A stretch of 64,000 bases of DNA from Syntrophales bacterium (GCA_036725345.1 DAIMEJ010000003.1:25553-89552), one strand, 5' to 3'. Positions 24,290 to 44,075 are shown, counted from the stretch's first letter. The notes: generated by a model from the sequence alone, not told the origin. Translations and numbers: made by a program.

Positions 24290-24297
24290 GTCGGCGC

Positions 24298-24831
24298 ATG
24301 AAGCCAAAGGAAATATTTGAAACGTTGAAAGGAAGCTTCTCTTCCCTGCTGGTCGGGGTGATCATCATCGTGATCTTCCTGGTCATTGGCTTTTACAACG
24401 TCCGGTCCCTGAACGATCTGGACCGTGACGTCCAGAAAATCAAGGCTGATATCGAGGAACAGCGCATCATGGCGCCTCTCTATAATGATCTCATCGAGAA
24501 GATCAAGGTCAAGACGAAGAAGCATTTGCCCTTCCCCGCCAAAGCCAAGTTGCCCAGGGAACAACACGAGCAGATTACGTCGATATTCGGGGAACTGGCG
24601 AAGAGGGCCAACCTCGAGGTCGTTTCCATCACACCGGATGTCAATTCACTGGCGGGGGGATCCGGCCTGCTGGTGGTCAACGCGGCTTTAAAAGGGGATT
24701 TCTTCAATTTCAGGAATTATCTGATTGAGCTAGGAAACGTGCCTTACCTGGAGCATCTGGGAGAAATCCAGATACAGACCATTCCGGGCGGCAGAGAGTT
24801 CCACCTCAAATTGTGGGTGTCCGTGGGATGA
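24298..24831 (+). CDS. PilO-like inner membrane alignment protein
   Basis: N-terminal TM, coiled coil, ferredoxin-like C-term (LKGDFFNFRNYLIEL); position after pilMN. Confidence 0.7.
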   Translation: MKPKEIFETLKGSFSSLLVGVIIIVIFLVIGFYNVRSLNDLDRDVQKIKADIEEQRIMAPLYNDLIEKIKVKTKKHLPFPAKAKLPREQHEQITSIFGELAKRANLEVVSITPDVNSLAGGSGLLVVNAALKGDFFNFRNYLIELGNVPYLEHLGEIQIQTIPGGREFHLKLWVSVG

Positions 24832-24901
24832 TGGATCGAACAGGGGGATCTTTTGTTGATCGGGGTCCGGGGCAACCCCGTCGTCTGCCGGGGCTGATGG
24901 A

Positions 24902-25399
24902 ATGAAAAAACGGGAAAGGATCATTCTGGCCGTCATGTTCGCGTGCATCCTGTTCGCCGGCTATTATTTTTTCCTCTCGGGAGCGGGACCGGGGGCCCCG
25001 AAGGTGGCCGTGACCGGCGGCAAGCCCGCGGATTCGGCGAAGATGATGGCGGAGATCGCCAACAGCCTGAAGAAAGACCCGGCGACGGAACCGGATGCCT
25101 ATGTGATCGCGCGGGCGGAAACCAACTGGGAGACGGACCCTTTCTACAAGGGGGTCCTCGCCTCTGCAAAGGACAAATCGGCCGGGGCGGGAAAGGGTCC
25201 GGATATCGTCTACTCCGGTTTTGTGGACCTGGGGGTGAAACGGATAGCCGTCATCAACGGCAACCCTTATGAGGTGGGTGACAAGCTCGAATTAGCGGGC
25301 TCCTATTATGTGAGGCAGATCGACTCGACCAGGGTCGTCGTCGTAGACAGGGAACAGAGCAGAAATATCACCATCCCGTTGAAGGACGAGACTTTTTAA
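24902..25399 (+). CDS. PilP/GspC-like pilus accessory protein
   Basis: N-terminal TM; DPF motif; beta-domain YSGFVD...AVING..YEVGD; position before secretin. Confidence 0.6.
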   Translation: MKKRERIILAVMFACILFAGYYFFLSGAGPGAPKVAVTGGKPADSAKMMAEIANSLKKDPATEPDAYVIARAETNWETDPFYKGVLASAKDKSAGAGKGPDIVYSGFVDLGVKRIAVINGNPYEVGDKLELAGSYYVRQIDSTRVVVVDREQSRNITIPLKDETF

Positions 25400-25410
25400 G
25401 GAGAAAAGCC

Positions 25411-28763: not shown

Positions 28764-28766
28764 CAC

Positions 28767-30503
28767 ATGCAAGGAAAGGTGGGGAAAGTGAAAGTCAGGA
28801 AAAAACTGGGGGAAATGCTCGTAGAGGCCAAGCTGTTGACGGATGAACAGCTCAATCAGGCGCTGACGGATCACAAGAAGAGCGGCCTCAAGCTGGGCAA
28901 GTATCTCATGCAGCAGGGGACCCTGACGGAATACCAGATCATCAGCGTCCTGAGCCAGCAGTTGAAGATAGAGAAGTACCATCCGGACAAGTACCCCGTG
29001 GACATCAACCTCGTCCAGATTGTGCCTTCGGACATCGCCCAGAAATACCAGGTTGCTCCGCTGAAGAAAAAGGGTCACCTCCTGACCATCGCGATGGTCG
29101 ACCCTGTCGATATCAACGCCCAGGACGCCATTGAAATGCTCACCAACCACGAGGTGGAACCCGTGGTCTGCACGGAACGCGAGTTGAACCAACTCATCGG
29201 GCAGGTCTACGGGATGCAGTCGGGAATCGGCGGGGTGCTGGAGAGCATCGAGGAACTCAAGATTGATTCGGGTGCCGACGCCGACGCCATCGCGGGGCCC
29301 TCGACGGACGATCTGCAGGTCAGCTCTCTCCAGGGGATGGCCGAGGAAGCCCCGATCGTGCGCCTCGTCAATTCCATCATCTCGCAGGCCGTCCGCGAAA
29401 GTGCAAGTGACATCCATCTCAGCCCGCAGCTGAAAAATGTCCAGGTGAGATTCCGGATTGATGGCAGGCTGCACGAAGTCCCCGCGCCCCCCAAGGCCAT
29501 GTTCCTGCCCATCATATCCCGGATCAAGATTCTGGCCAATATGGACATCGCCACATCGAGGATCCCGCAGGACGGGCGATTCACGGTCAAAATGGAAAAC
29601 AAGGAGATCAACGTCAGGGTTTCCTCGATCCCGACGATCTACGGGGAAAACCTCGTTTTGAGACTTCTCGACATGGGTGCCGGCGTCTACTCCCTGGATC
29701 GTCTGGGCATGTCCAAGGAGGACAAGGACAAGGTCGACTCCATCATCAACAAACCCTACGGCATGATTCTCAGCACGGGGCCCACCGGCAGCGGCAAGAG
29801 CACGAGCCTCTACGCCATCATCAAGGAAATCAACCGGGCCGATATTCACATCATCACGCTCGAGGACCCCGTGGAATACAGGGTCGAGCGGGTGAGGCAG
29901 GTACAGCTGAATCGGAAGGCGGGGATGACCTTTGCCAGCGGGTTGAGGTCGATTCTCCGGCAGGACCCGGATGTCATCATGGTCGGCGAGATCCGGGACG
30001 GCGAAACGGCGGGAATCGCCGTGCAGGCGGCACTGACGGGTCACAGGGTCCTGAGCACCGTTCACACCAATGATTCCGCCGGTGCGATCACCCGGCTTCT
30101 CGACATGGGCATCGAGCCGTTCCTCGTTTCGTCGGTCCTGCTCGTCTCTTTTGCCCAGAGGCTCGTGAGGACCATTTGCACCTATTGCAAGGAGCCCTAC
30201 CGGCCGAACGAGAAGGTGGTCGAGGCCTGGGGACTCAACGGGGTGAAGGACGGTCAGTTCCAGCGCGGACGGGGATGTCCCGCCTGCATGGGAACGGGTT
30301 ACCGGGGGCGAACGGGTCTCTTCGAAATCCTTCTCAATGACGACCTCATTCAGGACATGATTATCAAAGGGGCTTCGGCCCAGGAGATCCACCGCGCGGC
30401 CAAGCAGGCCGGGAGGCTTCGGACCCTCAGGGAGGATGCCGTTATCAAGGTCCTCAACGGCGTCACGACACTGGAGGAAGCGGCCTCGGCCGTCATGGTC
30501 TGA
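28767..30503 (+). CDS. pilB: Type IV pilus extension ATPase (PilB/GspE family)
   Basis: MshEN-like N-term KLGEML, ASDIH, PQDGR, GPTGSGKST, EDPVE, VGEIRD, TVHTND, CxxC...CxxC Zn site. Confidence 0.93.
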   Translation: MQGKVGKVKVRKKLGEMLVEAKLLTDEQLNQALTDHKKSGLKLGKYLMQQGTLTEYQIISVLSQQLKIEKYHPDKYPVDINLVQIVPSDIAQKYQVAPLKKKGHLLTIAMVDPVDINAQDAIEMLTNHEVEPVVCTERELNQLIGQVYGMQSGIGGVLESIEELKIDSGADADAIAGPSTDDLQVSSLQGMAEEAPIVRLVNSIISQAVRESASDIHLSPQLKNVQVRFRIDGRLHEVPAPPKAMFLPIISRIKILANMDIATSRIPQDGRFTVKMENKEINVRVSSIPTIYGENLVLRLLDMGAGVYSLDRLGMSKEDKDKVDSIINKPYGMILSTGPTGSGKSTSLYAIIKEINRADIHIITLEDPVEYRVERVRQVQLNRKAGMTFASGLRSILRQDPDVIMVGEIRDGETAGIAVQAALTGHRVLSTVHTNDSAGAITRLLDMGIEPFLVSSVLLVSFAQRLVRTICTYCKEPYRPNEKVVEAWGLNGVKDGQFQRGRGCPACMGTGYRGRTGLFEILLNDDLIQDMIIKGASAQEIHRAAKQAGRLRTLREDAVIKVLNGVTTLEEAASAVMV

Positions 30504-30545
30504 ATTTTTCTCTCTCGTGCGATTATTTTTGAACGGAAGGATCCC

Positions 30546-31781
30546 ATGCCTAAATTCACATACGAGGCGATCGCGGAAAGCGGCGCGGCCCTGTCGGGGG
30601 TCATCGAAGCGGAGTCTGCCGAGATGGCGAACACCCTGCTCGCCACCCGGGGTTATATCCCGTCAAAGGTCAAGAGGGTTTCCGAGGGGGGGGTCGGCCG
30701 GGGCCTGGCCTTCGACTTCATCCAGTCCCGGTTGGCGTCGGTCAAGGCTTCGGAGCTCATCCTTTTCACAAAGCAGTTCCGGACCATGTTCAGGGCGGGT
30801 GTGCCGATCATGCGAATATTCGAGGTTCTCGGTTATCAGACGCAGAACCCGAAATTGAAGAGGATCATCACGGGAATTGCCGGCGACATACAGGAAGGCG
30901 CCACCCTGTCGGACGCGCTGTCGAAGCATCCCGACACCTTCACACCCCTTTACCGGAGCATGATCAAGGCCGGCGAGACCAGCGGTAACATCCCCGAGGT
31001 ATTGGAGCGGATGATCTATATCCTGGAGCACGAGCACAAGATCAAGTCGGACATCCGGTCAGCCATGCAATACCCCATCATCGTGCTCATTGCTCTGGGG
31101 GTGGCCTTTTTCGTGCTCCTGACCTTCGTCATCCCCCGGTTTGTGACGATCTTCTCCAGGGCGGGGCTCGCCCTTCCCTGGCCGACGAAGGTCAGCATGG
31201 TGCTCTACTCCGTGCTCAGCAACTACTGGTACATCTGCCTGGCCGCCGTCGTCCTGGGGGGGATAGCGCTGCGGATGTATTTCAAGACACCGGTGGGTCG
31301 ATACACGAGGGATGCCTTCATCCTGCGCATTCCGCTCATCGGCACCCTTTTCATCCGGGCGGCCATGTCGCGGTTCGCAAGCATCTTTTCCATCCTCCAG
31401 TCGAGCGGTGTCCCCGTGATGACGTCCCTGCAGATCCTCTCGGGGACCATCGGCAACACCGCCATCGCGAGGGAATTCGACCGCGTCCGGGACCGTGTGG
31501 AGGAGGGAAGGGGCATTTCAGGCCCCCTGAATGTGGCAAAGTACTTCACCCCCATGGTGATTCAGATGGTTTCCATCGGCGAGGAGTCGGGTCAGCTCGA
31601 TGAAATGCTGAAGGCCGTGTCGACCCACTATGATGACGAGGTGGCCTATTCCGTTCAGCGGCTATCCGAAGCCGTGGGCCCGATTCTGGTCGTCGGCCTT
31701 GCGGCGGTGGTCGGCTTTTTTGCCATGGCCATTTTCCTTCCGATGTGGGACCTCACGCAGGTCGCGCGGACGGGATTCTGA
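30546..31781 (+). CDS. pilC: Type IV pilus platform protein (PilC/GspF family)
   Basis: FTYEA, FTKQF..MFRAGVP, GETSG, AMQYP, GEESGQLDEML, AIFLPMW. Confidence 0.93.
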   Translation: MPKFTYEAIAESGAALSGVIEAESAEMANTLLATRGYIPSKVKRVSEGGVGRGLAFDFIQSRLASVKASELILFTKQFRTMFRAGVPIMRIFEVLGYQTQNPKLKRIITGIAGDIQEGATLSDALSKHPDTFTPLYRSMIKAGETSGNIPEVLERMIYILEHEHKIKSDIRSAMQYPIIVLIALGVAFFVLLTFVIPRFVTIFSRAGLALPWPTKVSMVLYSVLSNYWYICLAAVVLGGIALRMYFKTPVGRYTRDAFILRIPLIGTLFIRAAMSRFASIFSILQSSGVPVMTSLQILSGTIGNTAIAREFDRVRDRVEEGRGISGPLNVAKYFTPMVIQMVSIGEESGQLDEMLKAVSTHYDDEVAYSVQRLSEAVGPILVVGLAAVVGFFAMAIFLPMWDLTQVARTGF

Positions 31782-31882
31782 TATGCCTTCCGGGGAGTCG
31801 CCTGCCGCTGCCCCGGCAAGGGGGTATACGGGATTGTATGAGCCCGGGGAATCGTTTTTGCGCAACACGGACACTCAATGAC

Positions 31883-33208
31883 ATGAAGCGCCCTCAGATC
31901 AACGTCAGTCTTTACGTTCTCATTCCGGTGATCTTCAGCGGGATTGCCGTCTTCGCGATCATCATCACCTACCGGATGATGGTGTCCTATGCCCAGTTTC
32001 CCGTGGAGTCCCTATCCTACCTTCAGTGGTGGGGTCTGGGCATCACCGTCTTCACCTTTCTCTGCGCGCTGTTCATCACGTGGCTCATCCTGAGACCGAT
32101 CAAGCAGTTCATCAAGAAGACGGAGAACCTCCCCGTATTCCCGAAATCCCAGGTTGAAAGCGTGAAGAGCTCCAAGGGGGACGATCTGGCGCAGTTCAAC
32201 ACGGTCTTCGAGCAGGTCAGCAACATCCTGAGCAAGGTCGAAGCCAAGGAGCTTTTCCCCGAAATTGTCGGGCAGAGCAAGGCCGTCAGGGGCATCTTCA
32301 GCCAGGTCTTGAAGATCGCGCCGACGGACGCGACGGTCCTCATCACGGGAGAGAGCGGGACGGGAAAGGAACTCATCGCCCAGAGCATTTATCAGCACAG
32401 CCTGCGGAAGGATCGACCCTTCGTCAAGCTCAACTGTGTGGCCATACCCGAGGGGCTGCTGGAGAGCGAGCTGTTCGGCCACGAAAAGGGATCTTTTACC
32501 GGGGCCACGGCGCAGAAAAAAGGAAAGTTCGAGCTGGCCAACAGCGGGACCATTCTCCTGGACGAAATCGGGGACATGCCGCTTACCACGCAGGCCAAGC
32601 TGCTTCGCGTTCTCCAGGAAAAGGAATTCGAAAGGGTGGGTGGCACCCGATCCATCAGGGTCGATGTCCGCTTCATTGCCGCGAGCAACAAGCAACTCCC
32701 CAAGCTCGTCCAGGACGGGTCATTCAGGGAGGATCTCTTCTATCGGCTCAACGTTCTTTCCCTGTACCTGCCGCCCTTGAGGGAGAGGCGAGAGGACATT
32801 CCCCTTTTGGCGGAATATTTTCTATCCAGGGCGGCAAAGCCCGTGAATATTTCATCCGCGGCGCTGCAGTCCCTGATCGGCTACAGCTGGCCCGGAAACG
32901 TCAGGGAACTTCAAAACACGATTGAGCGGGCTGCCGTCATGGCTGAAAACGGCATCATCCAGATCCATCATATCCCCCCCCAGATTACAGGCGGTGTCGT
33001 CGGTCAGATCACGAATGAACTGCCCGAGACGGCGTCCATCGACGACAGGCTGCAGGAAATTGAGAAGAAAATAATCGTTGACGCTTTGATCAGGGCCGAC
33101 GGTATACAGGTCAAGGCCGCCCAGATTCTCGGGATCAAAGAGCGAAGCCTCTGGCACAGAATCAAGAAATACGACATTGATGTCACGGCCATAAAGAAAT
33201 CTACATAA
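31883..33208 (+). CDS. Membrane-anchored sigma-54 enhancer-binding protein (2 TM + HAMP-like linker + AAA+ + Fis HTH)
   Basis: Two N-terminal TM helices; IVGQS, TGESGTGKE, ESELFGHEKGSFTGA, LLDEIGD, FREDLFYRL, WPGNVREL, AAQILGI; no receiver domain. Confidence 0.88.
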   Translation: MKRPQINVSLYVLIPVIFSGIAVFAIIITYRMMVSYAQFPVESLSYLQWWGLGITVFTFLCALFITWLILRPIKQFIKKTENLPVFPKSQVESVKSSKGDDLAQFNTVFEQVSNILSKVEAKELFPEIVGQSKAVRGIFSQVLKIAPTDATVLITGESGTGKELIAQSIYQHSLRKDRPFVKLNCVAIPEGLLESELFGHEKGSFTGATAQKKGKFELANSGTILLDEIGDMPLTTQAKLLRVLQEKEFERVGGTRSIRVDVRFIAASNKQLPKLVQDGSFREDLFYRLNVLSLYLPPLRERREDIPLLAEYFLSRAAKPVNISSAALQSLIGYSWPGNVRELQNTIERAAVMAENGIIQIHHIPPQITGGVVGQITNELPETASIDDRLQEIEKKIIVDALIRADGIQVKAAQILGIKERSLWHRIKKYDIDVTAIKKST

Positions 33209-33362: not shown

Positions 33363-33615
33363 GATTCGATGCTCTGACGGCGTCCAAAAGTCGCTGAAAA
33401 TCAAGGATGTAGTGACAGGTTCTTTTATAACATAGCTATCGCGGGCAGATTTTTTGTTACGGGTTGCCTAAAATCCTACCGTGACACGGACCTTAAGGGC
33501 ATGTCTCTCCCGCGTAGGAGATAAAAAGGTTCTTTAGAGGATGGCGTTTGGTGGTTCTCGAGAAAAGGAATTCTAATAATAAATGGTGAATAAACGAGTT
33601 TCAAGGAGGTTTCAG

Positions 33616-34002
33616 ATGCGTAGTCAAATGCTCATCAAAAATCAGAAAGGTTTCACGCTGATCGAGATCATCGCCGTTCTCGTGATCCTCGGGATCCTGG
33701 CTGCCGTCGCCATCCCGAAGTACTTCAGCCTGCAGGAAGAGGCCAAGATCAGAGCGGCGGTGGGGGCCGTGGCCGAGGGTAAAGCCAGGGTCACCCAGTA
33801 TGGTGCCCAGGAGCTTCTGAAAAACAGCAGGTGGCCTGGCTTAGATAGTTACACCAACGCTGCCCTCGGAACCGGTGCTGGTGATTTTACGCTGTCTTTT
33901 TCTCGTGATGGAAGCGACATCGTTGTTAAGGCAATAGGAAGAGCTGCACCTGTTGCAGGTACCAGCACGAGCGGCAAAATCAGGCCGCCGACCGGAAGCT
34001 AA
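33616..34002 (+). CDS. pilA: Major type IVa pilin
   Basis: QKG/FTLIEIIAVLVILGILAAVAIPKY class III signal; AAGGAGG SD; own promoter and strong terminator; 116-aa mature chain. Confidence 0.88.
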   Translation: MRSQMLIKNQKGFTLIEIIAVLVILGILAAVAIPKYFSLQEEAKIRAAVGAVAEGKARVTQYGAQELLKNSRWPGLDSYTNAALGTGAGDFTLSFSRDGSDIVVKAIGRAAPVAGTSTSGKIRPPTGS

Positions 34003-34019: not shown

Positions 34020-34058
34020 AATGCAGAGCTGCCCCGAGGGGCAGCTCTGCATTTTTTT
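34020..34058 (+). terminator. Intrinsic terminator after pilin
   Basis: Perfect stem AATGCAGAGCTGCCC-cga-GGGCAGCTCTGCATT plus T run. Confidence 0.9.
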
Positions 34059-34271
34059 AAGCAATCCCCTTATCACTTCCTCTCCAAAGCCGCGGTCAGT
34101 CTCGGCAACTAACCCCTGAACCAATCCTGAATCGAGCTTTTACCTTTTCTCGACTCGAAATCCCCATTGAATCGGCCTTTGGGGTGAAGAGCATGGGCGA
34201 GGGTTTTTTGCAGCGATAGGACCGGGACAGGCAGATCGCTCCATGGAGGTGCTGACTTTCACGAACAACAG

Positions 34272-36488
34272 TCAGTGAGCCTGACGGTTGGATGCAAGCG
34301 ATCGAAACACGCGATCGATGATGGGAAAGATAACGCCCTCATCAGGAATATAGGCGTGCATGTAATTCTCTCTGCGGATTTCTCTCACTTTATTTCTGAG
34401 TTCCCGCCTGTTCGTCAATGTAAAGAGTCGGCAGACCGTCTTCGTCAGAAGCTTTCTTTGACCTGTGCGTTCGTACAGCTCGATGAGCGCGAGGTGCGCA
34501 TCGAGTCTGTTCGGCGCCCTGGCAAGAGCCTTCTGCCAGAAAGAGATCGAAAGTTCATCATTTTTACGCTGCCGGTGGGCCTCTGCCGCGAGCACCATGG
34601 CGGAGGTGTCGTTTTCATTCATGGACAATATTTTCAATGCCGCCGTGACGGCCCCCGCCGTATTGCCCTCCTTCAGAGAAATCAATCCATCATTGATGAG
34701 GTAAACCGAATTCCTGGGGTTCTCATCCACTGCGAGCTGAATGTATTTTCGCGCCTCCGGCAGATTCCCCTGGTTTAGCCTGGCAAGGGCCATACCGTTA
34801 TAAAGGTCGGGGATGGTCCCGTACTTACGTTCCGCTTCGCGGAAGTATGAAAAGGCCTTTTCGTAGTCTTTTTCATGTTCTAGGTAATAATTTCCGATAT
34901 TGCACAGGTAAATGACCGGTTCGGACAGGTTGGCAAATCCCCCGAGCTCCAGTGCTTTTATGCTCTTCTCCAGGGCCATTTCGTAATTGCCTTCTTCCCG
35001 ATAGACCTTGGCCAGGGCTCCGTGCGGTCGGCTGAGATTTGGGTATGTCTCCGCGTTGACCATCCAGAGAATCTTCGCGTACCTCATATGGCCGTTTCTC
35101 AAATAGGTGGTATGGCCGAAATCAACCAGAAGAACGACTATGGCGAAGACCGCCATCATCTGAATCCATTTCCTCCGGGAGAAGTAGTCGAGGACATCGA
35201 GCAGGAAAATGGCAATCGGCACGAAAAACAGCATCGAAGGTATGTAGTTTCTGTGCTCATAGATGAGCTCCAGGGGGATGATCGAGCCTTCGACAAGGTG
35301 ATTCAGGAAAAAAAAGATGATGCAATAGGACAGAAGGGGTCTTTTGCGCGCCGAGGAGAGGGCGTATGCAAGGGCGACCAAAATGAATAGAATGGCCAGG
35401 GCCGTCGACGGGGGTTCCAGAAGAGACCTCGAGATCTCGATGTCGTGAACCAGGGCCATGCGGGTGGTCTGGGGATAAACCAGAAGCGACAGGTAAAAGA
35501 CAATGACGCGGGGCTCCGTCAGGAGACGCTCCGCCATGTTGAAACGGCGCAGGCGGTATCCTTCGAAGAGACTCGAAAAGTCGACGGAGAAAATGATGAC
35601 GATGGTGATTGCCGCGAGAATTGCGACAACGGCCAGGACCATTTTTTTGCTGAATCTTTCCTGGAGCCCCTGGATGAGCATCACGTCATAGAGAAGAATG
35701 CTCAACGGCAGAAGGACGACGTTTTCCTTGCTGCCCAGCGCCAGCAGGGTCGACGCCGCGGAGAGACCAAAACACAGTATGGCCGATATTTTTCTGTCCA
35801 CAGTCCGTCCCTTAAGATAAAAATACATGGCCATGATGTAAAACATGCCTGCCATGCTCGCCATCCTCTGGATGATTGTCGTAACGGCGTGGACATGAAT
35901 GGGGTGCGCGGACCAGAAAAAAGCGGCGAGAAGGGCTATGTTGTATGCGTTATCGCCATAGTACGGTCGAAGCAGCGGCAGTTTCAGGGTGTTCATGACG
36001 AAGAGAAAAAGGAAAAACGCCGCCACCAGGTGAATGACGACATTGACGACATGATAGCCGAACTCGTCCAGGTCCCCGAAATAGTAGTTTGTCGCGAAGC
36101 TGATGTAAGCGACAGGCCGGCTGAGTTTCCCCTCCCTGGTGTAAATACCTTTTGACAGCTCGGACCAGGTCAGGTTTTTGATGTGTATTTTTTCATTGTC
36201 GACAATGTTGCCGATATCGTCGAAGTGCCACTCGGCATGAAAGCTGTTTCCGTATATGGCGAGCAGAAGAACGGACAGGCCGATGAACGCAAAAATATAC
36301 TTTCGGGCATCCGGCAGGTGCCATTTGGTATTCACATTAAATCCGTTTCTCTTGGATATCATGCTTTTCCCCGATTCACCGCCCATCAGCGGATCGTCGT
36401 CCCCCTCTTCCACATCCCGCGAACGGATCCATTGTTCCGTTCTCGTGAAAAAAGGCCCTGGCATCCGTATTCGCGGTTGAAAGGGCAA
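34272..36488 (-). CDS. TMTC-like GT-C membrane glycosyltransferase with C-terminal TPRs (paralog 1)
   Basis: TM1 then WHFDDIGNIVDN; FHLVN-like YHVVN; HPIHVHAVTTIIQR; SKEN; YEHRNYIPS; then TPR helices; true start may be 36362. Confidence 0.8.
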   Translation of the reverse strand: MPFQPRIRMPGPFFTRTEQWIRSRDVEEGDDDPLMGGESGKSMISKRNGFNVNTKWHLPDARKYIFAFIGLSVLLLAIYGNSFHAEWHFDDIGNIVDNEKIHIKNLTWSELSKGIYTREGKLSRPVAYISFATNYYFGDLDEFGYHVVNVVIHLVAAFFLFLFVMNTLKLPLLRPYYGDNAYNIALLAAFFWSAHPIHVHAVTTIIQRMASMAGMFYIMAMYFYLKGRTVDRKISAILCFGLSAASTLLALGSKENVVLLPLSILLYDVMLIQGLQERFSKKMVLAVVAILAAITIVIIFSVDFSSLFEGYRLRRFNMAERLLTEPRVIVFYLSLLVYPQTTRMALVHDIEISRSLLEPPSTALAILFILVALAYALSSARKRPLLSYCIIFFFLNHLVEGSIIPLELIYEHRNYIPSMLFFVPIAIFLLDVLDYFSRRKWIQMMAVFAIVVLLVDFGHTTYLRNGHMRYAKILWMVNAETYPNLSRPHGALAKVYREEGNYEMALEKSIKALELGGFANLSEPVIYLCNIGNYYLEHEKDYEKAFSYFREAERKYGTIPDLYNGMALARLNQGNLPEARKYIQLAVDENPRNSVYLINDGLISLKEGNTAGAVTAALKILSMNENDTSAMVLAAEAHRQRKNDELSISFWQKALARAPNRLDAHLALIELYERTGQRKLLTKTVCRLFTLTNRRELRNKVREIRRENYMHAYIPDEGVIFPIIDRVFRSLASNRQAH

Positions 36489-36493
36489 CGGGA

Positions 36494-38572
36494 CTAGAGG
36501 GCCTTGTCCCTGCGCGCGGCTCCGCGGTCCGGCTGTTTCTTTTTCAGCAGAAAAACGATGCGTTCCGGAACAGGGACGTAGGAATAGAAATTTTTCCTCT
36601 GTTGAATCCCCTGGACAAAATCCAGAACAGCCTGACTGCCGATGCCCTGAAGCAGAAGGTCTCTCGCCTCCGCAAACTCCCGGTCTTTGCCGGCGGCGTC
36701 ATGAAGATCCATCAGCGCCAGGTACGCGTAGTTTCTGTCGGCTCTTTTCTGCAGATAATATCCCCAGTATGAAGCCGATTCGGCATAGAGCCCTTTCCGG
36801 CGAAGGGCTTCAGCGATGATGGTCAGGGGCGAACTGTGGTCTTCCGCCAGGTCCAGGGCTTTCCGGCTCGACGCCATCGCCCCGTCAAGGTCCCCCTCCT
36901 TCAAAAGAATCAAAGCGTGATTGCTGTGGTAATCCGTGTTTCCGGGTTTCAGGGCTATGGCCTTGACGATCGTCGCTTCGGCCGCATCGAAATCCCCTTT
37001 CTTCAGAAACAACATGGCCATTCCATTGTAATACTCGTGCGTGGTGGCGTATTCCAGGGACTTCGTGTAACAGGTCCTGGCTTTCTCTTCGTCCCCGCTC
37101 ATGTCCAGGTAAATGTTACCGACGTAGCAGTGGTAGATCGCGGGCTCCGCCCGGTTGATCCACCGATCCGATTTGAGGGCTGCCTGAAATTCCTCGAGCG
37201 CCCGTTCGTAATTCCCCTCCATGAGAAGTACTTTTCCGAGCAGGGCTCGCACGCGGCTGGACCGCGGGGTTTTCTCGACATTGTCCATCCACAGGGTCTT
37301 TTCGTCGGCCAGGACATCGTTTCGTTTGTAGGTTGTCAGGCCCTGAAGGGCAAGCATGACGGCGACGGCTACGATCAACAGCCGCCGGATAATCTGCTTG
37401 TCGGTGCAATGATCATAGACATGGACCATGAGGATGGCGACGGGCACAAAGAGGAACATGGAAGGTATGTAATTCCGGTGCTCGTAGGCGAGTTCCAGCG
37501 GCAGGATGGAACCCTCGATGACGTGATTGAGGAAGAAAAAGAGGACACAGAAGGAAATCAGGGGCCATCGGCGCGCTTTCAGCAGGGCGCCGCCGATGAT
37601 GAGCGCCATACCCAGAATAGCGGCCGCCGTCGTCCAGGGTTCGAAGAGCGAGCGGGAGACATGAACATCGTAGAAAAAGGCAAGCCGGGTGGGTACGGGG
37701 TAAAACAGGAGCGTGAGGTAAAGGAAAATGACCCTGGGCTGCGTCAGCAGCCGCTCCACCAGAGTGAAATACCGGGTCTGGTAACCCTCGATGACGGGCT
37801 TGAAATCGATCCACCAGAGCCCAAGAAGGACGGCGGCCAGCATGGGTATGGCGATGATTTTCAAGTTTTTCTTTATATTTTCCGTGCTCAACCCCTGGAT
37901 AAGGAATAGATCATACAGGAAGAGGATGACCGGCAGCATGAGGGCGTTTTCCTTGGAGCCGAAGGACAGAAGAAAAGAAGCACCGCAGAGCCCGTAGAAC
38001 AGGATGCTGTGCTGACGGTCTTGAGAGGTTCTTCCCCTGATGTAAGCAAACATGGCCAAAAGGAAAAAAAGGCCCGCCATGCTCGACATCCTCTGGATGA
38101 GGTAGGTGACGGCGGTTACCTGCACGGGATTGACCGACCACAGGAGTGTGGCGAGAAAGGAAATGGTGAAGGAACTCCGGCCGTATTCCTCCCGGAGGAG
38201 AGGGAGATTCAGCGTGCGGTGGATGACGAGGAAAAGGAGAAAGGACGAGAGGAGATGGAGAGTGACATTGACGACATGGTAACCGAACACATCCAATCGC
38301 CCGAAATAGTAATTGAGGCCGAAACTCAAGCGGGCCGCGGGTCTTGAAATATGCCCGAGAAAATAGAGGGTATTCTTCAACTCCGTCCAGGAGAGGTTTT
38401 TTAAATGCACCTGCCGGTTGTTGACGATGTTGTCAAAATCGTCAAAATGCCAGAGGGCATTGAAGCTGTTGCCGTAGATCGCCAGCAACACCAGCAGGAG
38501 GGTAACGAAGACGAGGCCGTACTTTTTCCCTGTCAGAGATTTCCAGTTCATAAGCGTCATGGGGCCAATCAA
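36494..38572 (-). CDS. TMTC-like GT-C membrane glycosyltransferase with C-terminal TPRs (paralog 2)
   Basis: WHFDDFDNIVNN; YHVVN; NPVQVTAVTYLIQR; SKEN; YEHRNYIPS; TPRs. Confidence 0.8.
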   Translation of the reverse strand: MIGPMTLMNWKSLTGKKYGLVFVTLLLVLLAIYGNSFNALWHFDDFDNIVNNRQVHLKNLSWTELKNTLYFLGHISRPAARLSFGLNYYFGRLDVFGYHVVNVTLHLLSSFLLFLVIHRTLNLPLLREEYGRSSFTISFLATLLWSVNPVQVTAVTYLIQRMSSMAGLFFLLAMFAYIRGRTSQDRQHSILFYGLCGASFLLSFGSKENALMLPVILFLYDLFLIQGLSTENIKKNLKIIAIPMLAAVLLGLWWIDFKPVIEGYQTRYFTLVERLLTQPRVIFLYLTLLFYPVPTRLAFFYDVHVSRSLFEPWTTAAAILGMALIIGGALLKARRWPLISFCVLFFFLNHVIEGSILPLELAYEHRNYIPSMFLFVPVAILMVHVYDHCTDKQIIRRLLIVAVAVMLALQGLTTYKRNDVLADEKTLWMDNVEKTPRSSRVRALLGKVLLMEGNYERALEEFQAALKSDRWINRAEPAIYHCYVGNIYLDMSGDEEKARTCYTKSLEYATTHEYYNGMAMLFLKKGDFDAAEATIVKAIALKPGNTDYHSNHALILLKEGDLDGAMASSRKALDLAEDHSSPLTIIAEALRRKGLYAESASYWGYYLQKRADRNYAYLALMDLHDAAGKDREFAEARDLLLQGIGSQAVLDFVQGIQQRKNFYSYVPVPERIVFLLKKKQPDRGAARRDKAL

Positions 38573-38587
38573 TAATTTGGATACAAT

Positions 38588-39541
38588 TTACATACCATTT
38601 TCCGGTGTGTGAGCGGTTGGAACCCCCTTCACATTCAGCTCCCGGGTCAAGAGATAACTGAACAGAAGTCCCAGAGTGAACGCGACCAGGAGACCCGTGA
38701 GCCTCAACAGCAACGACACGATGACCCCGTAGGCCGCGCCTACCCCGAACAGCCCGGAGGAGATTGCGACAATCACTTCCTGGATGCCGAAGTTTCCCGG
38801 TGTCAGGTTGATCAGGAGAGAAAAGGAAGCCAGCAAATACACGAGCAGTGAAAGATCGAACGGGACCTCCAGCCCGTAGGATCGATAGGCCGCCTGGTAC
38901 ATCACCCCGCCCAGGAGGATGTTCAGCAGGGCACAGAAGGACAGCCGGGAGACCAGGGCACGGTCCCCCCTGATATCCGACCATCCCCTGATCGCGTCGT
39001 TGATCCGGTGAATCAATCGGTTGTTCCATGTCAACTCCCGAAACGGGGTCAGCATCAGGCAGACGAGAATCAGCAGCGCAGCCAGAAACAGGCCGGTGAG
39101 TTCCCGGAAGTAGGTGAAGGGCCTGTGCAGGGCGATCAGAACCATGAGTCCCGACACACTGACCATGGTGAAATTGATCAGATAGCTTGCGGCCAGCGAT
39201 GTGCCGAACTGTGTGTAGGAAAAACCATGGCGACGTTTGAGATAAGCGGCACGGGCGATGAGCCCCCCTGAAAAGGGTGCGATGGCGTTGCCGAGGGTCG
39301 TCATGAATGAAAGGCCGAGCCACTCTCTGGTTTTCAGATGAATGCTGAATTTTGCGGCGATGATGCGCAATGCCACCCCGTTGACGACCAGGACGGCGCT
39401 CTGAAGACAAATCAGCAGCAGGATGAAGCGAAAGGAGATGCCCTGAAGGGCGGCAAGCGCATCCCTTTCCCGATAGAGGAAAACCGCCATCAAGATCAGG
39501 ACAAGCGTTATGCTGAAAACAGGCCATGCGATGCGCTTCAT
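38588..39541 (-). CDS. UPF0104/lysylphosphatidylglycerol-synthase TM family protein (putative lipid-linked sugar flippase)
   Basis: ~8 TM; LGNAIAPFSGG..RAAYL and TPGNFGIQE motifs. Confidence 0.75.
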   Translation of the reverse strand: MKRIAWPVFSITLVLILMAVFLYRERDALAALQGISFRFILLLICLQSAVLVVNGVALRIIAAKFSIHLKTREWLGLSFMTTLGNAIAPFSGGLIARAAYLKRRHGFSYTQFGTSLAASYLINFTMVSVSGLMVLIALHRPFTYFRELTGLFLAALLILVCLMLTPFRELTWNNRLIHRINDAIRGWSDIRGDRALVSRLSFCALLNILLGGVMYQAAYRSYGLEVPFDLSLLVYLLASFSLLINLTPGNFGIQEVIVAISSGLFGVGAAYGVIVSLLLRLTGLLVAFTLGLLFSYLLTRELNVKGVPTAHTPENGM

Positions 39542-40263
39542 CCCGTATCCTCGTCCTTTCGCACCTTCGCGGTTAAAAAAGCCGCGTGCCTTGGATCGAG
39601 TTTCGCGATTCCGGACGGCAGGGGAAAGTACCCGGAACCCTCAAGGCGGACCACTTTAAAGCCGTGAACCTCGAAGACGTCCCTGAGTCCGCGGTAGCCG
39701 AAAACCCGGTGGTGTTGCCAGCTCTTCGGGTTCGTCGCCGCTTCTCCATGATGAATGGCCAGTGGATTTCCAATTTGAAAACGCCTGCCGGAGATGTTGG
39801 ACAGGGAGAAAGGCTGCCACCCCAGGATGAGTGCGAAAATGTTGTGCCAGCTGCAGAGGTTTTCCGTGCACACAATCGCGTACCCCCCCGTCTTCAGGAC
39901 CCTGCGAATCTCCGCGATGAAATGGTCCGTGTCCGTGATGTGCTCGATGACCTGATTTGCGTGGAGGACGTCAAACGTGTTATCGGAAAACGGAAAGGCA
40001 TCGTTGAGGTCCGCCTGCCTGGCGTCGATCCCCCGTTGAAGGGCCAGGGCCCGTCTTTCCTCCACCACCTCGATGCCGAACAGTCGCGCTTTCCCCAGGC
40101 GGCTTCCCAGTTGCAGGGTCCACTCGCCGTCATCGCAGCCGCAGTCGAGGAGGAGCGCCGGGTCCGATGCGGGCTCGAGGCAGTCAAGGATGCACGTCCT
40201 GTAGTCCTCGACGGCGGCCTGCCGCATTTTATGCATTGCTCTTCTGACGGCTTCTCTCATCAT
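39538..40263 (-). CDS. Class I SAM-dependent methyltransferase
   Basis: LLDCGCDDG, GIE, ADLN, FDVLHANQVIEH, RVLKTGG; 4-nt overlap with next gene. Confidence 0.88.
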   Translation of the reverse strand: MMREAVRRAMHKMRQAAVEDYRTCILDCLEPASDPALLLDCGCDDGEWTLQLGSRLGKARLFGIEVVEERRALALQRGIDARQADLNDAFPFSDNTFDVLHANQVIEHITDTDHFIAEIRRVLKTGGYAIVCTENLCSWHNIFALILGWQPFSLSNISGRRFQIGNPLAIHHGEAATNPKSWQHHRVFGYRGLRDVFEVHGFKVVRLEGSGYFPLPSGIAKLDPRHAAFLTAKVRKDEDTG

Positions 40264-40296
40264 AAAACGCTGACGGGCCCGACCCCGTGAAGACCT

Positions 40297-41019
40297 TCAA
40301 GCACCGGGTGATGGGCCCGCTCCTTTCGTCAGCGGCCGGTGGGAGACCGCGATGCCGAGGCGTGAAACAAAAAAGTCACCTGCGGACGGGAGGTCCTTTA
40401 TCTTCCCTTCGATCACCCGCAACAGGGGGATGCAGGTTTCATAACGAATGACGTCTGTTGTCTGCAAGCCATGGCGTTCCACGAGGCGACGGTATTCCTC
40501 TTCGGTCCGCACGCCGACATGACCCGTCGTTTGCCTGAGGAGTCGGTTTCCGTGCTTCAGGCGCTCGATCCAGTGGCTTCGGCAGGGCGTAAAAAAAACG
40601 AATGTACCGTGCGTCCTGAGGAGCCGGGCCGCCTCTGAAAGAGCGCCTGCGAGGTGATCGTCCGAGAGGTGCTCCAGCACGTCGATGGCGATGATCTTGT
40701 CAAAGCTGTGATCATCGAAGAGGGTCAGCGAACAGATGTCCGCGACGGCGTATTGCACGTTATCCGGTGCTCCCATGGAACGGGCTTTTTCGATGGCGGC
40801 CGGCGAAAAATCCACACCGGCCACTTTTCGAACGCGGCCGGCGAGCCATCTCGTGTAATGGCCGCTGCCGCACCCGAGCTCCAGGACATCGTCCGCCGGC
40901 CCCGGCATGCAGAGCCTCTCGATCGTCTGCAGGCGTTGACGCTCCCGGAAGGCGTTATTGCCGAAGAGGCCGGGCCTGTTCAGCTTCTCGTAGTAGGCGC
41001 TGTCGTAAAGCGGTTTCAT
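40297..41019 (-). CDS. Class I SAM-dependent methyltransferase
   Basis: VLELGCGSG, GVDFS, ADI, FDKIIAIDVLEHL, LLRTHG; ATGA overlap with upstream GT2. Confidence 0.88.
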   Translation of the reverse strand: MKPLYDSAYYEKLNRPGLFGNNAFRERQRLQTIERLCMPGPADDVLELGCGSGHYTRWLAGRVRKVAGVDFSPAAIEKARSMGAPDNVQYAVADICSLTLFDDHSFDKIIAIDVLEHLSDDHLAGALSEAARLLRTHGTFVFFTPCRSHWIERLKHGNRLLRQTTGHVGVRTEEEYRRLVERHGLQTTDVIRYETCIPLLRVIEGKIKDLPSAGDFFVSRLGIAVSHRPLTKGAGPSPGA

Positions 41020-41996
41020 GAGTTTGATCCCGTCCCCCTGACCCATCCCGTCACCTGCCACTTCAGGATCCCGAGGCCGAAGGACAATACGACGGCAGGC
41101 AGACAAAAACCGACCACGAGGAGGTCCCTCCACGTCCTGCTCAGGTAGACAACCAGGCAGAGGAACCCCAGGGCCAGACCGGTCAGCACGGGGCCTTTCA
41201 GCACGGGCGAAAAAATGACCGCTGCCAGTGATAAAAGGATGAGGAACCAGATCAGAAGATAGAGGAAGAAGTATTTTCCTCCCGGGCGAAGATAGTAGTC
41301 GGCAAACCGGGGTCCGCGCTCGTACGTGTGAATCATGACGTCCCGGAAATCCGTCCTCGGCCGGTAGGTCACGCAAGCGGCATGGGTCTTCAGGATCGGC
41401 CGTTCCCCGACGATTTGTCTCAGGATCCGGGTATCGTCGTTGGTGTAACGGTCGATCTCGGGCAATTGACTTTTCAGCCACAGGGTGCGGTCGCAGATGA
41501 AATTTGTCGTTCCCTTCGGGACGCTGTCGAAATTATCGGGGGTGATGAAATATTCTTCGGTTTTATTCATGGTGTGGTAGTACTTCGAGTAGAGCCTGCA
41601 TCTGAGAAGATGAAAAAACCTGGCGAAGCCCCAGGGGCTCCCGTCATAAGCGTCGACGGCCGGCAGAAGGGGCTCGTAGTTTCGGCTGTGCACCTTCGCG
41701 AGCAGGTCCAACTCCGGGATGACCCGCGCATCGTTGAAGATCAGGGTTTCGAACCGGGCGGCCCGGGCGCCGGTGTTCCGCGCTACAATGCGGCCCTCGT
41801 TGGACTCCAGGTTGATCAAACGGACAGGGTAAGAGGCGGTAATCCGGGGCGTGGCGTCCGTCGAGCCGTCATTCACCACGATCACTTCGAACTGCTCCCG
41901 CGGGTAGGTTTGACCGACGAGCGCCTCCAGGCAGGTGCCGAGGGTATCCGCGCCGTTGAAAACGGGGACGATAATGGAGAAATTTTCAAGGCTCAT
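41016..41996 (-). CDS. Glycosyltransferase family 2 with C-terminal TM helices
   Basis: SIIVPVFN, VVNDGSTD, ARNTG, FNDAR (DxD region), DD-containing NDDTRI; hydrophobic C-term. Confidence 0.85.
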   Translation of the reverse strand: MSLENFSIIVPVFNGADTLGTCLEALVGQTYPREQFEVIVVNDGSTDATPRITASYPVRLINLESNEGRIVARNTGARAARFETLIFNDARVIPELDLLAKVHSRNYEPLLPAVDAYDGSPWGFARFFHLLRCRLYSKYYHTMNKTEEYFITPDNFDSVPKGTTNFICDRTLWLKSQLPEIDRYTNDDTRILRQIVGERPILKTHAACVTYRPRTDFRDVMIHTYERGPRFADYYLRPGGKYFFLYLLIWFLILLSLAAVIFSPVLKGPVLTGLALGFLCLVVYLSRTWRDLLVVGFCLPAVVLSFGLGILKWQVTGWVRGTGSNS

Positions 41997-42010
41997 CGCA
42001 CCTGACGCCT

Positions 42011-43105
42011 TCAGGCATAGGGTATAAGGTGGTCGACAATCACTTCGGACGGGTGGAGATCCTCAAAACGAGACCCGCTGCCGCGCCTCAGGGTGGGGAA
42101 GGAGCGCAAGAAATAGTCGACCTTCCCATCGTGGAAGCCGGCCAGAAAGACGTTGGTCCCCAGGCCTTCCGTCCGCTCGGTCCTGGCCCTCATGACGAGA
42201 CAGGGAATGTCGAGGTAATAGCTTTCCTCCTGGATGCTCCCCCCGTCCGTGACTATGAAATCGGCGCCGGCCAGCATGTCGAGGAACGTCAGATAAGGCT
42301 GTATGGGCATCAGTTCAATAGACGGGAGGTTCTCGAGTTTCGCGTAGAGGCCCCTGCGGACGAGCTGCTGTCGCGTCGGTTCATGGAGGACGAAGAGAAC
42401 CCTCCGTTCGCGTCCGATTCGTTCCAGAAGAGCGACGACGGTCTCGAGCCGGGACCTGGAGTATATCGTCTCCACCCTGTGGAGGGTGGCGACGACATAG
42501 GACCCGGCGGGCCGTGTCCCGCTGGTACGCGAGGCGGCAAAGCGAAGGGTGTCGACGATTGTATTGCCGCCGGCATGAATGGTTTTTCCCTCGAGATGCA
42601 TTTTCCTCAGGTTTTCACAGGCCCATTCCGAAGGGGCAAAAAGAATGTCGCTGTAACGCATGACGATGAGACGGATCATCTCCTCGGGGAAAGGGTCCAG
42701 GAGGTCAAAACTCCGGAGGCCAGCCTCCACGTGGGCCACCTTGATGCCGCAGCGCCTGGCGAAAAGAAGCGACAGCAGGGTGGTCATGGTGTCACCGTGA
42801 ATGAGGCAGACTCCCTTTTCGCCCCGGAAAACGTTTCTTCGGATGCCCTCCAGCCTCAACGCCGCACGACCGAGGCTCGCCCCCGTCCATGCGAGAGCCT
42901 CGGAGAGCCGGGTGATGCTCGTTTTTTCTCCCCGGAGACGGATGTCGGGCTCACGCAACCCGAAGGGTTCGATGAGGTCGCCGGTGATTCCCGCATGCTG
43001 CCCCGTGTCGATGAAGTTGAAGTGAACGGCCCGTCGATCCAGTTCACGCATGATGGGGGCCATCTTGATGAACTGGGCCTTCGTGCCGATCATGATGTGG
43101 ATCAT
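42011..43105 (-). CDS. UDP-N-acetylglucosamine 2-epimerase family protein (divergent, non-hydrolysing WecB-like)
   Basis: GTKAQFIKMAP, TGQH, HGDT, HVEAGLRS, PEE, TLHR, TDGGSIQEE. Confidence 0.82.
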   Translation of the reverse strand: MIHIMIGTKAQFIKMAPIMRELDRRAVHFNFIDTGQHAGITGDLIEPFGLREPDIRLRGEKTSITRLSEALAWTGASLGRAALRLEGIRRNVFRGEKGVCLIHGDTMTTLLSLLFARRCGIKVAHVEAGLRSFDLLDPFPEEMIRLIVMRYSDILFAPSEWACENLRKMHLEGKTIHAGGNTIVDTLRFAASRTSGTRPAGSYVVATLHRVETIYSRSRLETVVALLERIGRERRVLFVLHEPTRQQLVRRGLYAKLENLPSIELMPIQPYLTFLDMLAGADFIVTDGGSIQEESYYLDIPCLVMRARTERTEGLGTNVFLAGFHDGKVDYFLRSFPTLRRGSGSRFEDLHPSEVIVDHLIPYA

Positions 43106-43130
43106 AGGGACTATTCCCCAGTTCGAAAGC

Positions 43131-44075
43131 TCAGCCCTCCGGGGGCACGGGGCCCCTGCCCTCGCTGCGGTCGAAGCGCAGCTGCGCGACCTGTTCCGAG
43201 ACGAGGCCGACCATGAAGACCACGACGGCCATGGTCATCAGCATGGCGGAGGTGGGACCGTAGCGGCCGCCCAGGAAAAAGATCTTTACAAGACCCCAGG
43301 CGAATCCCGTGAGAAACATGGCGGCGCTGACGGGGATGAAAATTCTCAAGGGTGAAAACAGTGTGGCGATCTTCACGATGATCAGGAAAAACCTCGTACC
43401 GTCCCGCAGCAGCTTGATCTTGCTCCTCCCTTTTCGCTTCGCCGTCCGGATGGGGACGTAGGCCAGGCTGTGGCCGGAGCGGACAATGGCGAGCGTGATC
43501 GTCGTGGGGTAGGAAAAGGTGTTCGGAAGGAGGTAGACGAAGCGCCGCGCGATGACGGTCTTGATCGCCCGGAAGCCCGACGTCAGGTCTTCGATCTTCA
43601 TTCTGCAGATGTAGCTGGCGAAGAAGTTGTAGATCTTGTTGGCCGCATCCCTGTGAAGGCTCGTTTCCGAATCGTGTGTGCGCGCGCCCACGGCCATGTC
43701 GTAGGTCTCGAGCTTTTCGAGGAGCCGCGGGATGTCCTCGGGGTTGTGCTGCCCGTCGGCGTCGAGGATCACGAGGGCCTTTCCCCTGGCATTTCGAATG
43801 CCCGTTTTGACGGCGGCGCCGTTTCCGATGTTGTAGGGATGCGAAATCACCCGGGCGCCCGCCTGGCGGGCACTTTCGGCCGTTGCGTCGTGAGACCCGT
43901 CATCCACGACGATGATTTCATAGGACTGGTTTTGGCTGGCCATGACCTGTTGTATATTTGTTACAACCGTTGCAATTCCCTCCTTTTCGTTGTAGGCAGG
44001 AATGACGACGCTGACGGCCGGTATCGCATTTCTCGCTTCTGCTGCCAGGGAATGCATAATGGTCGTACTTTTCAT
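43131..44075 (-). CDS. Polyprenyl-phosphate glycosyltransferase (GT2, DPM1-like) with C-terminal TMs
   Basis: VVIPAYNE, VDDGSHD, GNGAAVKTG, LDADGQH, DLTSGFRA, SKIK; two TM at C-term. Confidence 0.88.
   Translation of the reverse strand: MKSTTIMHSLAAEARNAIPAVSVVIPAYNEKEGIATVVTNIQQVMASQNQSYEIIVVDDGSHDATAESARQAGARVISHPYNIGNGAAVKTGIRNARGKALVILDADGQHNPEDIPRLLEKLETYDMAVGARTHDSETSLHRDAANKIYNFFASYICRMKIEDLTSGFRAIKTVIARRFVYLLPNTFSYPTTITLAIVRSGHSLAYVPIRTAKRKGRSKIKLLRDGTRFFLIIVKIATLFSPLRIFIPVSAAMFLTGFAWGLVKIFFLGGRYGPTSAMLMTMAVVVFMVGLVSEQVAQLRFDRSEGRGPVPPEG

Follow-up and report, generated by a model that had tools for sequence, protein, structure and literature searches.

Overview of the locus

Why would eight genes for sugar transfer, methylation and membrane proteins lie between the pilin genes of a type IV pilus cluster? 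The question is raised by a 64,000-nt stretch of DNA (hereafter, the window) from an uncultured anaerobe, Syntrophales bacterium (GCA_036725345.1 DAIMEJ010000003.1:25553-89552). At 34272-44075, within a type IV pilus cluster and between the major prepilin gene and the minor prepilin-type genes, its minus strand carries eight operon-like genes that either overlap by 4 bp or lie no more than about 130 bp apart (Table 1). Scans for open reading frames (ORFs) and domains recovered all eight with the types that an earlier, sequence-only reading had assigned: two family 2 glycosyltransferases (GT2a, which is DPM1-like, and GT2b), an N-acetylhexosamine (HexNAc) 2-epimerase, two S-adenosylmethionine (SAM) methyltransferases, a flippase-like membrane protein and two proteins (A and B) that combine a glycosyltransferase C (GT-C) domain with tetratricopeptide repeats (TPRs). 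The flanking prepilin genes of that reading were likewise found, all on the plus strand, and a prepilin motif scan detected only four prepilin-like ORFs in the 64 kb, starting at 33583, 45837, 46361 and 46786. The most likely answer, to which we assign a probability of roughly 0.6, is that GT-C/TPR enzymes homologous to eukaryotic TMTC1-4 O-glycosylate the adjacent type IV pilins in the periplasm, with a lipid-phosphate-linked sugar supplied by GT2a.

Homology of the GT-C/TPR proteins to TMTC1-4

TMTC1-4 (CAZy GT105) are eukaryotic O-mannosyltransferases of cadherins that depend on dolichyl phosphate mannose. For comparison, 12 TMTC1-4 membrane domains published by Eisenhaber et al. 2021 (PMC7801869, Additional file 1) were aligned as a profile with 40 members of the family of A and B. 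This hhalign comparison, of the kind that the sequence-only reading had called for, gave a probability of 99.5% and an E-value of 3.1e-22 over 197 columns, and lowering the alignment threshold extended it over residues 17-417; in controls with the TMTC alignment reversed or its columns shuffled, the E-values were 0.07-0.58. Pairwise phmmer scores to TMTC1-4 were 31-58 bits overall (31-55 bits for protein A), and the family hidden Markov model scored 51-89 bits against the TMTCs.

The acidic FDD motif and the later motifs noticed at the outset were present in the sequence, with key residues invariant in the 40 homologs. Protein A reads AHPIHVHAVTTIIQR, GSKEN and YEHRNYIPS, and carries FDD, SRP, AHPIHVHAV..QR, SKEN and EHRNYIPS motifs. 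D44, D45, R77, N87, R161, K207, D302, H365, N367, Y368 and P370 are invariant among the homologs, at least 90% of which also share P78, E364, R366 and S371. Against the published TMTC motif definitions (M1-M5 and M7; PMC7801869), D44-D45 corresponds to M1 (DD in the first external loop) and K207-E208 to M4 (KE(T/Q)xxT), both kept. E364-H-R-N-Y368-x-P-S-M corresponds to M7 (ERxxY; AERVLYMPSM), also kept, with the R one position later. R77 and P78, followed by LSF.LN, match YRP..L(S/T)F.LN, which includes part of M2 (SHKSYRP), with SHKS lost; R161 retains the R of M3 (RxD), with the D replaced by Ser or Ala; and D302 retains the D of M5 (DW), with the W lost. Apart from these losses, the hhalign alignment bears out the TMTC parallels drawn earlier, the shared elements being DD, RP..LSF.LN.....YH.VN...H, HP.H..AV...R, KE and E..Y.PS. 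On these comparisons, A and B are classified as divergent members of a TMTC-like GT-C+TPR superfamily.

Domain architecture and predicted fold

Proteins A and B are paralogs with 44% identity over 668 residues, each of about 690 aa with a polytopic N-terminal half and C-terminal TPRs. An AlphaFold 2 model of protein B, built with the 40 homologs (predicted local distance difference test, pLDDT, 86; predicted template modelling score, pTM, 0.83), contained 11 long transmembrane (TM) helices, a first loop with short juxtamembrane helices, and approximately 7 TPR hairpins (approximately 14 helices) from residue 424. From the helix count, the TPR domain and the catalytic DD loop are predicted to lie on the periplasmic side. 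The same plan is found in TMTC1-4, in which a homologous 11-TM GT-C domain is followed by TPRs on the non-cytoplasmic side.

The membrane domain of A and B matched no Pfam family even at E ≤ 10 and no NCBIfam family, and PDB sequence searches with a single protein, a full-length profile or a membrane-domain profile returned TPR proteins only or nothing, with no membrane-domain relative. Foldseek with the full-length B model also retrieved TPR structures only. With a separate model of residues 1-436 (pLDDT 70.8), the nine best matches were all GT-C enzymes, namely Pmt4 (five matches; best E 8e-3, template modelling score 0.47) and STT3 (four matches); ALG3 appeared at rank 13 (E 1.0), and unrelated transporters and receptors had probabilities of ≤0.11. 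A GT-C fold of the membrane domain is supported in silico. Pmt4 is only the nearest solved fold: A and B gave no PMT or PMT_2 Pfam match, and TPRs take the place of the luminal MIR domain.

Some databases label a few homologs 'protein O-mannosyl-transferase', and others 'Tfp pilus assembly protein PilF'. The latter name would suit a non-catalytic pilus assembly factor resembling the PilF/PilW/Tgl pilotins, the membrane domain being a mere anchor, and weak matches to TIGR02521 PilW and to Tgl/GltE TPR lipoproteins, as well as the position of the gene inside a pilus cluster, fit that explanation. However, the pilotin matches span the TPR region only and lie far under the cut-offs (43 and 34 bits against 154 for TIGR02521, and 17.7 against 225 for NF033762), so that identity with PilF or PilW was rejected. 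Furthermore, the residues assigned by TMTC modelling to catalysis, metal binding and phosphate binding (DD, K-E, D302 and E/H/R..Y) are invariant in the 40 homologs (E364 and R366 in at least 90%), and the gene shares an operon with a lipid-sugar synthase. We regard a purely structural role as very improbable.

Association with pilin genes

Related loci were collected by scanning one genome per GTDB species, which yielded 79 loci, nearly all from Desulfobacterota and two from Chromatiaceae; gene order was obtained by tblastn with the window proteins, and prepilins were found by a homology-independent scan for prepilin signal motifs. In 58 of the 79 species-level loci, the GT-C/TPR gene had a small prepilin ORF no more than 500 bp away. 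Prepilins occurred at 0.525 per kb up to 900 bp from the GT-C/TPR gene and at 0.0205 per kb beyond 3 kb, a 26-fold difference. Enrichment beside pilin genes, on which the sequence-only reading had staked its proposal in advance, was therefore evident. The partner pilins were MshA-like in 32 cases and type IVa (T4a) PilA-like in 21, and the adjacency persisted over three gene arrangements, including the convergent one and a pilA-then-GT-C tandem, the latter with T4a pilins in 16 related loci. This variety of pilin classes and arrangements argues against simple inherited synteny. The recurring order was secretin, ATPase, platform protein, (sigma-54 activator), pilA, GT-C/TPR gene and minor pilins; more than 30 related loci have pilus machinery in the window's order beside their GT-C/TPR gene, and in many Desulfobacterales this gene is the sole one between pilA and the minor pilins.

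The same survey bears on a broader role, in which the enzymes would O-glycosylate many exported periplasmic or envelope proteins (secretin, minor pilins, adhesins, cytochromes), with the pilin as just one target or not the principal one. The superfamily comprises 69,012 clusters at E ≤ 1e-3, and still as many as 13,518 at E ≤ 1e-30, many genomes have multiple copies, with up to four in tandem (loci L007, L016, L017 and L025), 21 of the 79 loci have no adjacent prepilin, and TPR domains are able to bind many partners. Set against this are the tight adjacency over two pilin classes and three arrangements, which points to a dedicated partner, and the many loci in which the GT-C gene is the sole non-pilus gene within the pilus cluster. 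Such a general system is improbable in our estimate, though not negligible.

In the window, the proposed acceptor is the MshA-like major prepilin, whose mature form reads FTLIEIIAVLVILGILAAVAIPKY... and ends in a Ser/Thr/Pro-rich tail; its gene is convergent with that of protein A, with 269 bp between them. Further possible acceptors are the products of the three downstream prepilin-type genes, which may be minor pilins and a 1264-aa pilin-like protein.

Two kinds of related loci show additional pilin-linked arrangements. Up to four tandem GT-C/TPR paralogs stand beside two or three tandem pilA genes in some Smithella/Syntrophales (L007, L016, L017 and L025; around 10000-18000), and these arrays point to diversification of enzyme-acceptor pairs. 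A Desulfobacula metagenome-assembled genome (MAG; L060:8931-13217) carries, in this order, two tandem genes for Cys-containing T4a pilins, a GT-C/TPR gene and a gene for a VKOR and DsbA-like fusion (PF07884 + PF01323), which suggests a pilin maturation cassette joining disulfide formation and glycosylation.

Donor-side genes and the swappable module

The best NCBIfam matches of GT2a were AglJ (4e-36), PpgS (1e-28) and ArnC (9e-28), and its PDB matches were ArnC (5e-23, over residues 18-290 and including the C-terminal membrane helices), Pyrococcus DPM synthase (1e-17) and GtrB (2e-15); GT2a is accordingly classified by similarity as a polyprenyl-phosphate glycosyltransferase. The epimerase scored 191.6 bits with wecB (TIGR00236) and 39 bits with NeuC. 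GT2b matched only generic GT2 enzymes in the PDB, and it may either extend the glycan or make a second lipid-linked donor. The MprF-type PF03706 protein is a candidate lipid-sugar flippase.

The combination of polyprenyl-phosphate GT2, flippase-like protein and GT-C in one operon, as originally proposed, recurs elsewhere. GT2a, the flippase-like gene and GT-C co-occur in L001, L006, L015, L023, L026, L031, L045 and L064, plus the truncated L046, and form a constant three-component core. The middle of the operon is a swappable glycan-tailoring module, in that the epimerase and GT2b are replaced in related Syntrophales loci by GT4 enzymes and class I or FkbM-type methyltransferases. The sugar suggested at first, N-acetylmannosamine (ManNAc), is only an inference from the epimerase, which is missing from most related cassettes. 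The implied order of events, with extension and O-methylation after transfer, is also unlikely, since GT2b or GT4 enzymes need cytoplasmic nucleoside diphosphate sugars and the methyltransferases need SAM, so that both steps must precede flipping. The GT-C cargo could be either a monosaccharide or a short glycan.

The donor side also invites a different acceptor, namely a glycan or lipid (lipopolysaccharide, exopolysaccharide or a peptidoglycan-linked polymer), as in the Gtr, ArnT and YfhO systems, with the pilus linkage being regulatory or accidental. The GT2a, flippase and GT-C layout is that of O-antigen and teichoic-acid modification (PMC11127046), ArnC is the closest likeness of GT2a, and further sugar genes lie in the window. 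However, the nearest sequence relatives of known function (TMTC1-4) and the fold matches (Pmt4 and STT3) are protein glycosyltransferases, TPR domains are typical of protein-directed enzymes (TMTC, TfpW and OGT), and the 26-fold prepilin enrichment would be left unexplained. A glycan or lipid acceptor therefore appears quite improbable.

Proposed pathway

We propose a pilin-dedicated system on the plan of lipid-phosphate-sugar, flippase and GT-C. The epimerase would make UDP-ManNAc or a related 2-epimer, and GT2a, as a polyprenyl-phosphate glycosyltransferase, would move a sugar from its UDP donor onto undecaprenyl phosphate at the cytoplasmic face. GT2b and the two methyltransferases may then extend and/or methylate the lipid-linked sugar in the cytoplasm, or GT2b may instead produce a second lipid-linked donor. 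The MprF-type protein would flip the product, and the two GT-C/TPR enzymes would attach it to Ser/Thr residues on the folded type IV pilin from the adjacent gene. The two paralogs may serve separate acceptors or sites (major versus minor pilins) or act successively. The benefit, by analogy with TfpW and TfpO, is likely an altered pilus surface, for example one that blocks pilus-specific phages.

Several observations weigh against pilin O-glycosylation by TMTC-like enzymes. Regarding the homology, motifs M2, M3 and M5 are kept in part only; PF08409 (DUF1736), which covers the TM7-TM8 loop of the TMTCs, was undetected in A and B and was precomputed in 0 of the 120 homologs listed; and the Foldseek E-values for the membrane domain are weak (8e-3 to 0.4), the domain-only model having a pLDDT of 70.8. 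Regarding the acceptor, gene neighbourhood is the one line of evidence that points to a pilin. Several of the 21 loci with no adjacent prepilin are short contigs; the size of the superfamily at E ≤ 1e-3 means that many members must have other acceptors; and the GT-C genes in the window are convergent with pilA and not co-transcribed with it. When the pilins adjoining GT-C genes were aligned, Ser/Thr-rich strands and tails but no conserved acceptor signature were seen. Finally, the PF03706 protein is a flippase by candidacy only.

A more far-reaching version of the proposal can be formulated, which we consider rather unlikely as a whole. The pilin-adjacent GT-C/TPR proteins of Desulfobacterota, possibly together with TfpW, would form one ancient clade with the TMTCs, in which recognition of Ser/Thr on folded beta-sheet domains by a TPR arm arose first for type IV pilins, and the enzyme described here would transfer a short methylated ManNAc-containing glycan from undecaprenyl monophosphate. 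To our knowledge, en-bloc transfer from a lipid monophosphate is so far known only in archaeal Agl N-glycosylation; this version would make it O-linked.

Comparison with known glycosylation systems

The donor logic, a lipid-monophosphate sugar, would be shared with TMTC1-4. The carrier would be undecaprenyl rather than dolichyl phosphate, the sugar is probably not mannose, and the acceptor would be a pilin instead of the extracellular cadherin (EC) domains.

The sequence-only reading held that known pilin glycosylation relies on PglL/TfpO enzymes of a different family. PglL and TfpO (PilO) also glycosylate type IV pilins in the periplasm, and tfpO also lies directly after pilA, but they do belong to an unrelated Wzy_C/O-antigen-ligase-like family that uses undecaprenyl diphosphate-linked oligosaccharides, and no Pfam or NCBIfam match to a Wzy_C or O-antigen ligase domain was found in any of the eight operon proteins. 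The statement was incomplete in that it omitted TfpW, the pilin D-arabinofuranosyltransferase of Pseudomonas aeruginosa group IV strains (Pa5196/PA7). This GT-C protein of 646 aa has 11 TM helices and a cytoplasmic N-terminus; its loop 1 contains an essential DDx, and its TPR domain is periplasmic (10.1101/2020.04.19.049825). The TfpW gene immediately follows pilA, and its product is both required and sufficient to arabinosylate pilin from a polyprenyl-phosphate donor (10.1101/2020.04.19.049825), and both TfpW and TfpO protect against pilus-specific phages (PMC11841053). The principle of a GT-C/TPR pilin glycosyltransferase is thus already established by TfpW.

Compared by its published description, TfpW resembles A and B in being a GT-C protein (approximately 650-700 aa) that is encoded next to the major pilin gene, has DDx in periplasmic loop 1 and ends in a periplasmic TPR domain. 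Its YX6PFX7P motif (periplasmic loop 4) is half present here: Y285-x6-P292 is invariant, and the F and the second P are absent (consensus YPIxSRLTLLHD). The variant described here differs in its donor pathway, flippase type and lineage. The donor would be supplied via a DPM1/ArnC-like GT2 and a UDP-HexNAc epimerase, whereas TfpW uses a D-arabinofuranose (D-Araf) route through DprE1/DprE2 and phosphoribosyl pyrophosphate (PRPP), and none of these donor genes (DprE1/DprE2 or PRPP transferase) was found among the eight operon genes. The flippase candidate is MprF-type rather than GtrA-type, and the hosts are Desulfobacterota as opposed to Gamma- and Betaproteobacteria.

Three-component systems, in which the genes for a GT2 that makes a polyprenyl-phosphate sugar, for a small flippase and for a GT-C occur together (PMC11127046), include GtrB-GtrA-GtrC, ArnC-ArnE/F-ArnT, CsbB-GtcA-YfhO and the GT136 pentofuranose systems. 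They share with the present operon the grouping of a GT2, a (candidate) flippase and a GT-C. Unlike it, they modify O-antigen, lipid A or teichoic acids with GT-Cs that have no TPRs, and their flippases are of the GtrA/SMR or MATE type rather than PF03706.

In the Agl pathway of Haloferax volcanii (AglJ, AglG/I/E, AglP and AglB; AglD/AglR/AglS), described by the Eichler laboratory, an AglJ-like GT2 starts the glycan on a lipid monophosphate, cytoplasmic glycosyltransferases and a SAM methyltransferase act before flipping, and a GT-C transfers the product to a surface protein. AglJ is the top NCBIfam match of GT2a, and extension and methylation of the lipid-linked sugar before flipping would be a common feature. 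The Agl pathway is, unlike the present one, archaeal and N-linked to Asn, with an STT3/AglB-type transferase and a dolichol carrier. Our literature search found no report that ties TMTC homologs to pilins or that describes the Desulfobacterota family.

Significance

TMTC1-4 are human disease genes (cobblestone lissencephaly and hearing loss), and the inferences about how they catalyse transfer and recognise acceptors come mainly from knock-outs in cells and from modelling. A PDB search found no membrane-domain structure of the TMTC family. A bacterial homolog with a small, easily purified and genetically linked candidate acceptor, the adjacent pilin, would be tractable for work on structure, on donor specificity and on what the TPR arm does. 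The unannotated family that gains a testable function in this way is very large (13,518 clusters at E ≤ 1e-30); its members are now named 'TPR protein' or 'PilF', and the TMTC homology together with the family size makes the system a worthwhile experimental target. The proposal predicts that swappable cassettes glycosylate the pili of syntrophic and sulfate-reducing Desulfobacterota. Among these pili are some that are discussed as conductive filaments. In anaerobic digesters and sediments, such glycosylation would matter for resistance to phages, for adhesion and for the surface chemistry of the pilus.

Base composition

The lowest-G+C 2-kb segment of the 64 kb is 33001-35000. Gene G+C was 0.543 for pilA, 0.515 and 0.546 for the genes of proteins A and B, respectively, and a marginal 0.566 for the flippase-like gene, against a window mean of 0.581; the remaining five operon genes (methyltransferases, GT2s and epimerase) were average (0.58-0.61). 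The AT-richness claimed earlier for the region was correct in its counts (31/60 and 43/60 G+C) and applies to the pilA/GT-C end only, not to all eight genes. Whole-cassette horizontal transfer was considered on the basis of G+C and rejected, as only pilA and the GT-C genes deviate. Related loci also vary in copy number, with 1-4 GT-C genes and 1-3 pilA genes, and their tailoring genes are swapped. Composition, variable copies and swapped genes together fit a fast-evolving pilin/transferase pair plus a modular sugar module, and not the single exchangeable eight-gene cassette that had been suggested.

Gene layout and other features of the window

Table 1. Coordinates of the glycosylation operon and the neighbouring pilus genes in the window
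Feature	Position	Strand	Evidence and remarks
Type IV pilus machinery	22397..33208	+	Pfam: PilM_2, two small ORFs, secretin, AAA_22 ATPase, MshEN assembly ATPase, platform protein, sigma-54 activator
Major prepilin, MshA-like	33583..34002	+	PF07963 N_methyl 1.6e-9; TIGR02532; prepilin motif scan
GT-C/TPR protein A, TMTC-like	34272..36362 (ORF to 36488)	-	about 696 aa from MISKRNG; TPR Pfam matches at residues 460-690
GT-C/TPR protein B, TMTC-like	36494..38551 (ORF to 38572)	-	685 aa per public-assembly gene calls
MprF-type 'flippase-like' membrane protein (UPF0104/LPG_synthase_TM)	38588..39541	-	PF03706 4.1e-27; TIGR00374 4.7e-15
Class I SAM methyltransferase 1	39538..40263	-	PF08241 1.4e-17; 4-bp overlap with start of flippase-like gene
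Class I SAM methyltransferase 2	40297..41019	-	240 aa from MKPLYD (public-assembly gene calls concur); PF08241 4e-22; NodS-like 4e-15
GT2b glycosyltransferase, C-terminal membrane region	41016..41996	-	PF00535 1e-22, residues 7-106 only
Non-hydrolysing UDP-HexNAc 2-epimerase, WecB/MnaA-like	42011..43105	-	PF02350 7e-58; TIGR00236 191.6 bits; PDB 4NEQ 3e-41
GT2a, predicted polyprenyl-phosphate glycosyltransferase, DPM1/GtrB/ArnC/AglJ-like, two C-terminal TM helices	43131..44075	-	PF00535, NCBIfam and PDB matches
Extracytoplasmic function (ECF) sigma factor	44533-45276	+	Sigma70_r2/r4
Putative anti-sigma membrane protein	45122-45850	+	beside ECF sigma factor
Three prepilin-type genes	45837-46364, 46361-46777, 46786-50580	+	PF07963; prepilin motif scan

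The 1264-aa prepilin-type ORF (46786-50580) has a pilin-like first part, followed by CFVATAAYGS, more membrane segments and a second pilin-like hydrophobic N-terminal segment, and could represent a minor pilin fused to an MshQ/PilY1-like tip protein. The pilus machinery at 22397-31781 looks MSHA-type rather than classical T4a, because of MshEN on the assembly ATPase, an AAA_22 ATPase (MshM/ExeA-like) between secretin and ATPase, and a PilM_2 protein of 630 aa. Directly after the minor pilin block, two more T2SSE-family ATPase genes (50746-53709, minus strand; 504 and 415 aa) may encode PilT/PilU-like retraction ATPases.

The ECF sigma/anti-sigma pair precedes the minor pilin genes, is transcribed divergently from the glycosylation operon and is kept at the same position in the Syntrophales loci L015, L018, L026, L028, L031 and L045. 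Scans for sigma-70 promoters and terminators around pilA/GT-C A and upstream of GT2a remained at chance level, and a sigma-54 pattern search of the window gave 38 matches against 47 expected. Two sigma-54-like GG-N10-GC elements are of interest as positional leads only, one at 33347-33361, 222 bp before pilA and just past the sigma-54 activator gene, and the other at 22099-22113, approximately 285 bp before pilM.

A second envelope/sugar gene set occupies 55876-63907, comprising a phosphoglucomutase/phosphomannomutase (55876-57525), a GNAT + DUF4922 protein (58334-59839), a 505-aa GT2 (59849-61366) and a DUF748/OmpA protein (61415-63907), and a UDP-glucose/GDP-mannose dehydrogenase is encoded at 372-1700. 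GT-C B has exact copies on contigs of an uncultured MAG of Syntrophales (GCA_035358095.1) and on metagenome contigs from JGI and ENA.

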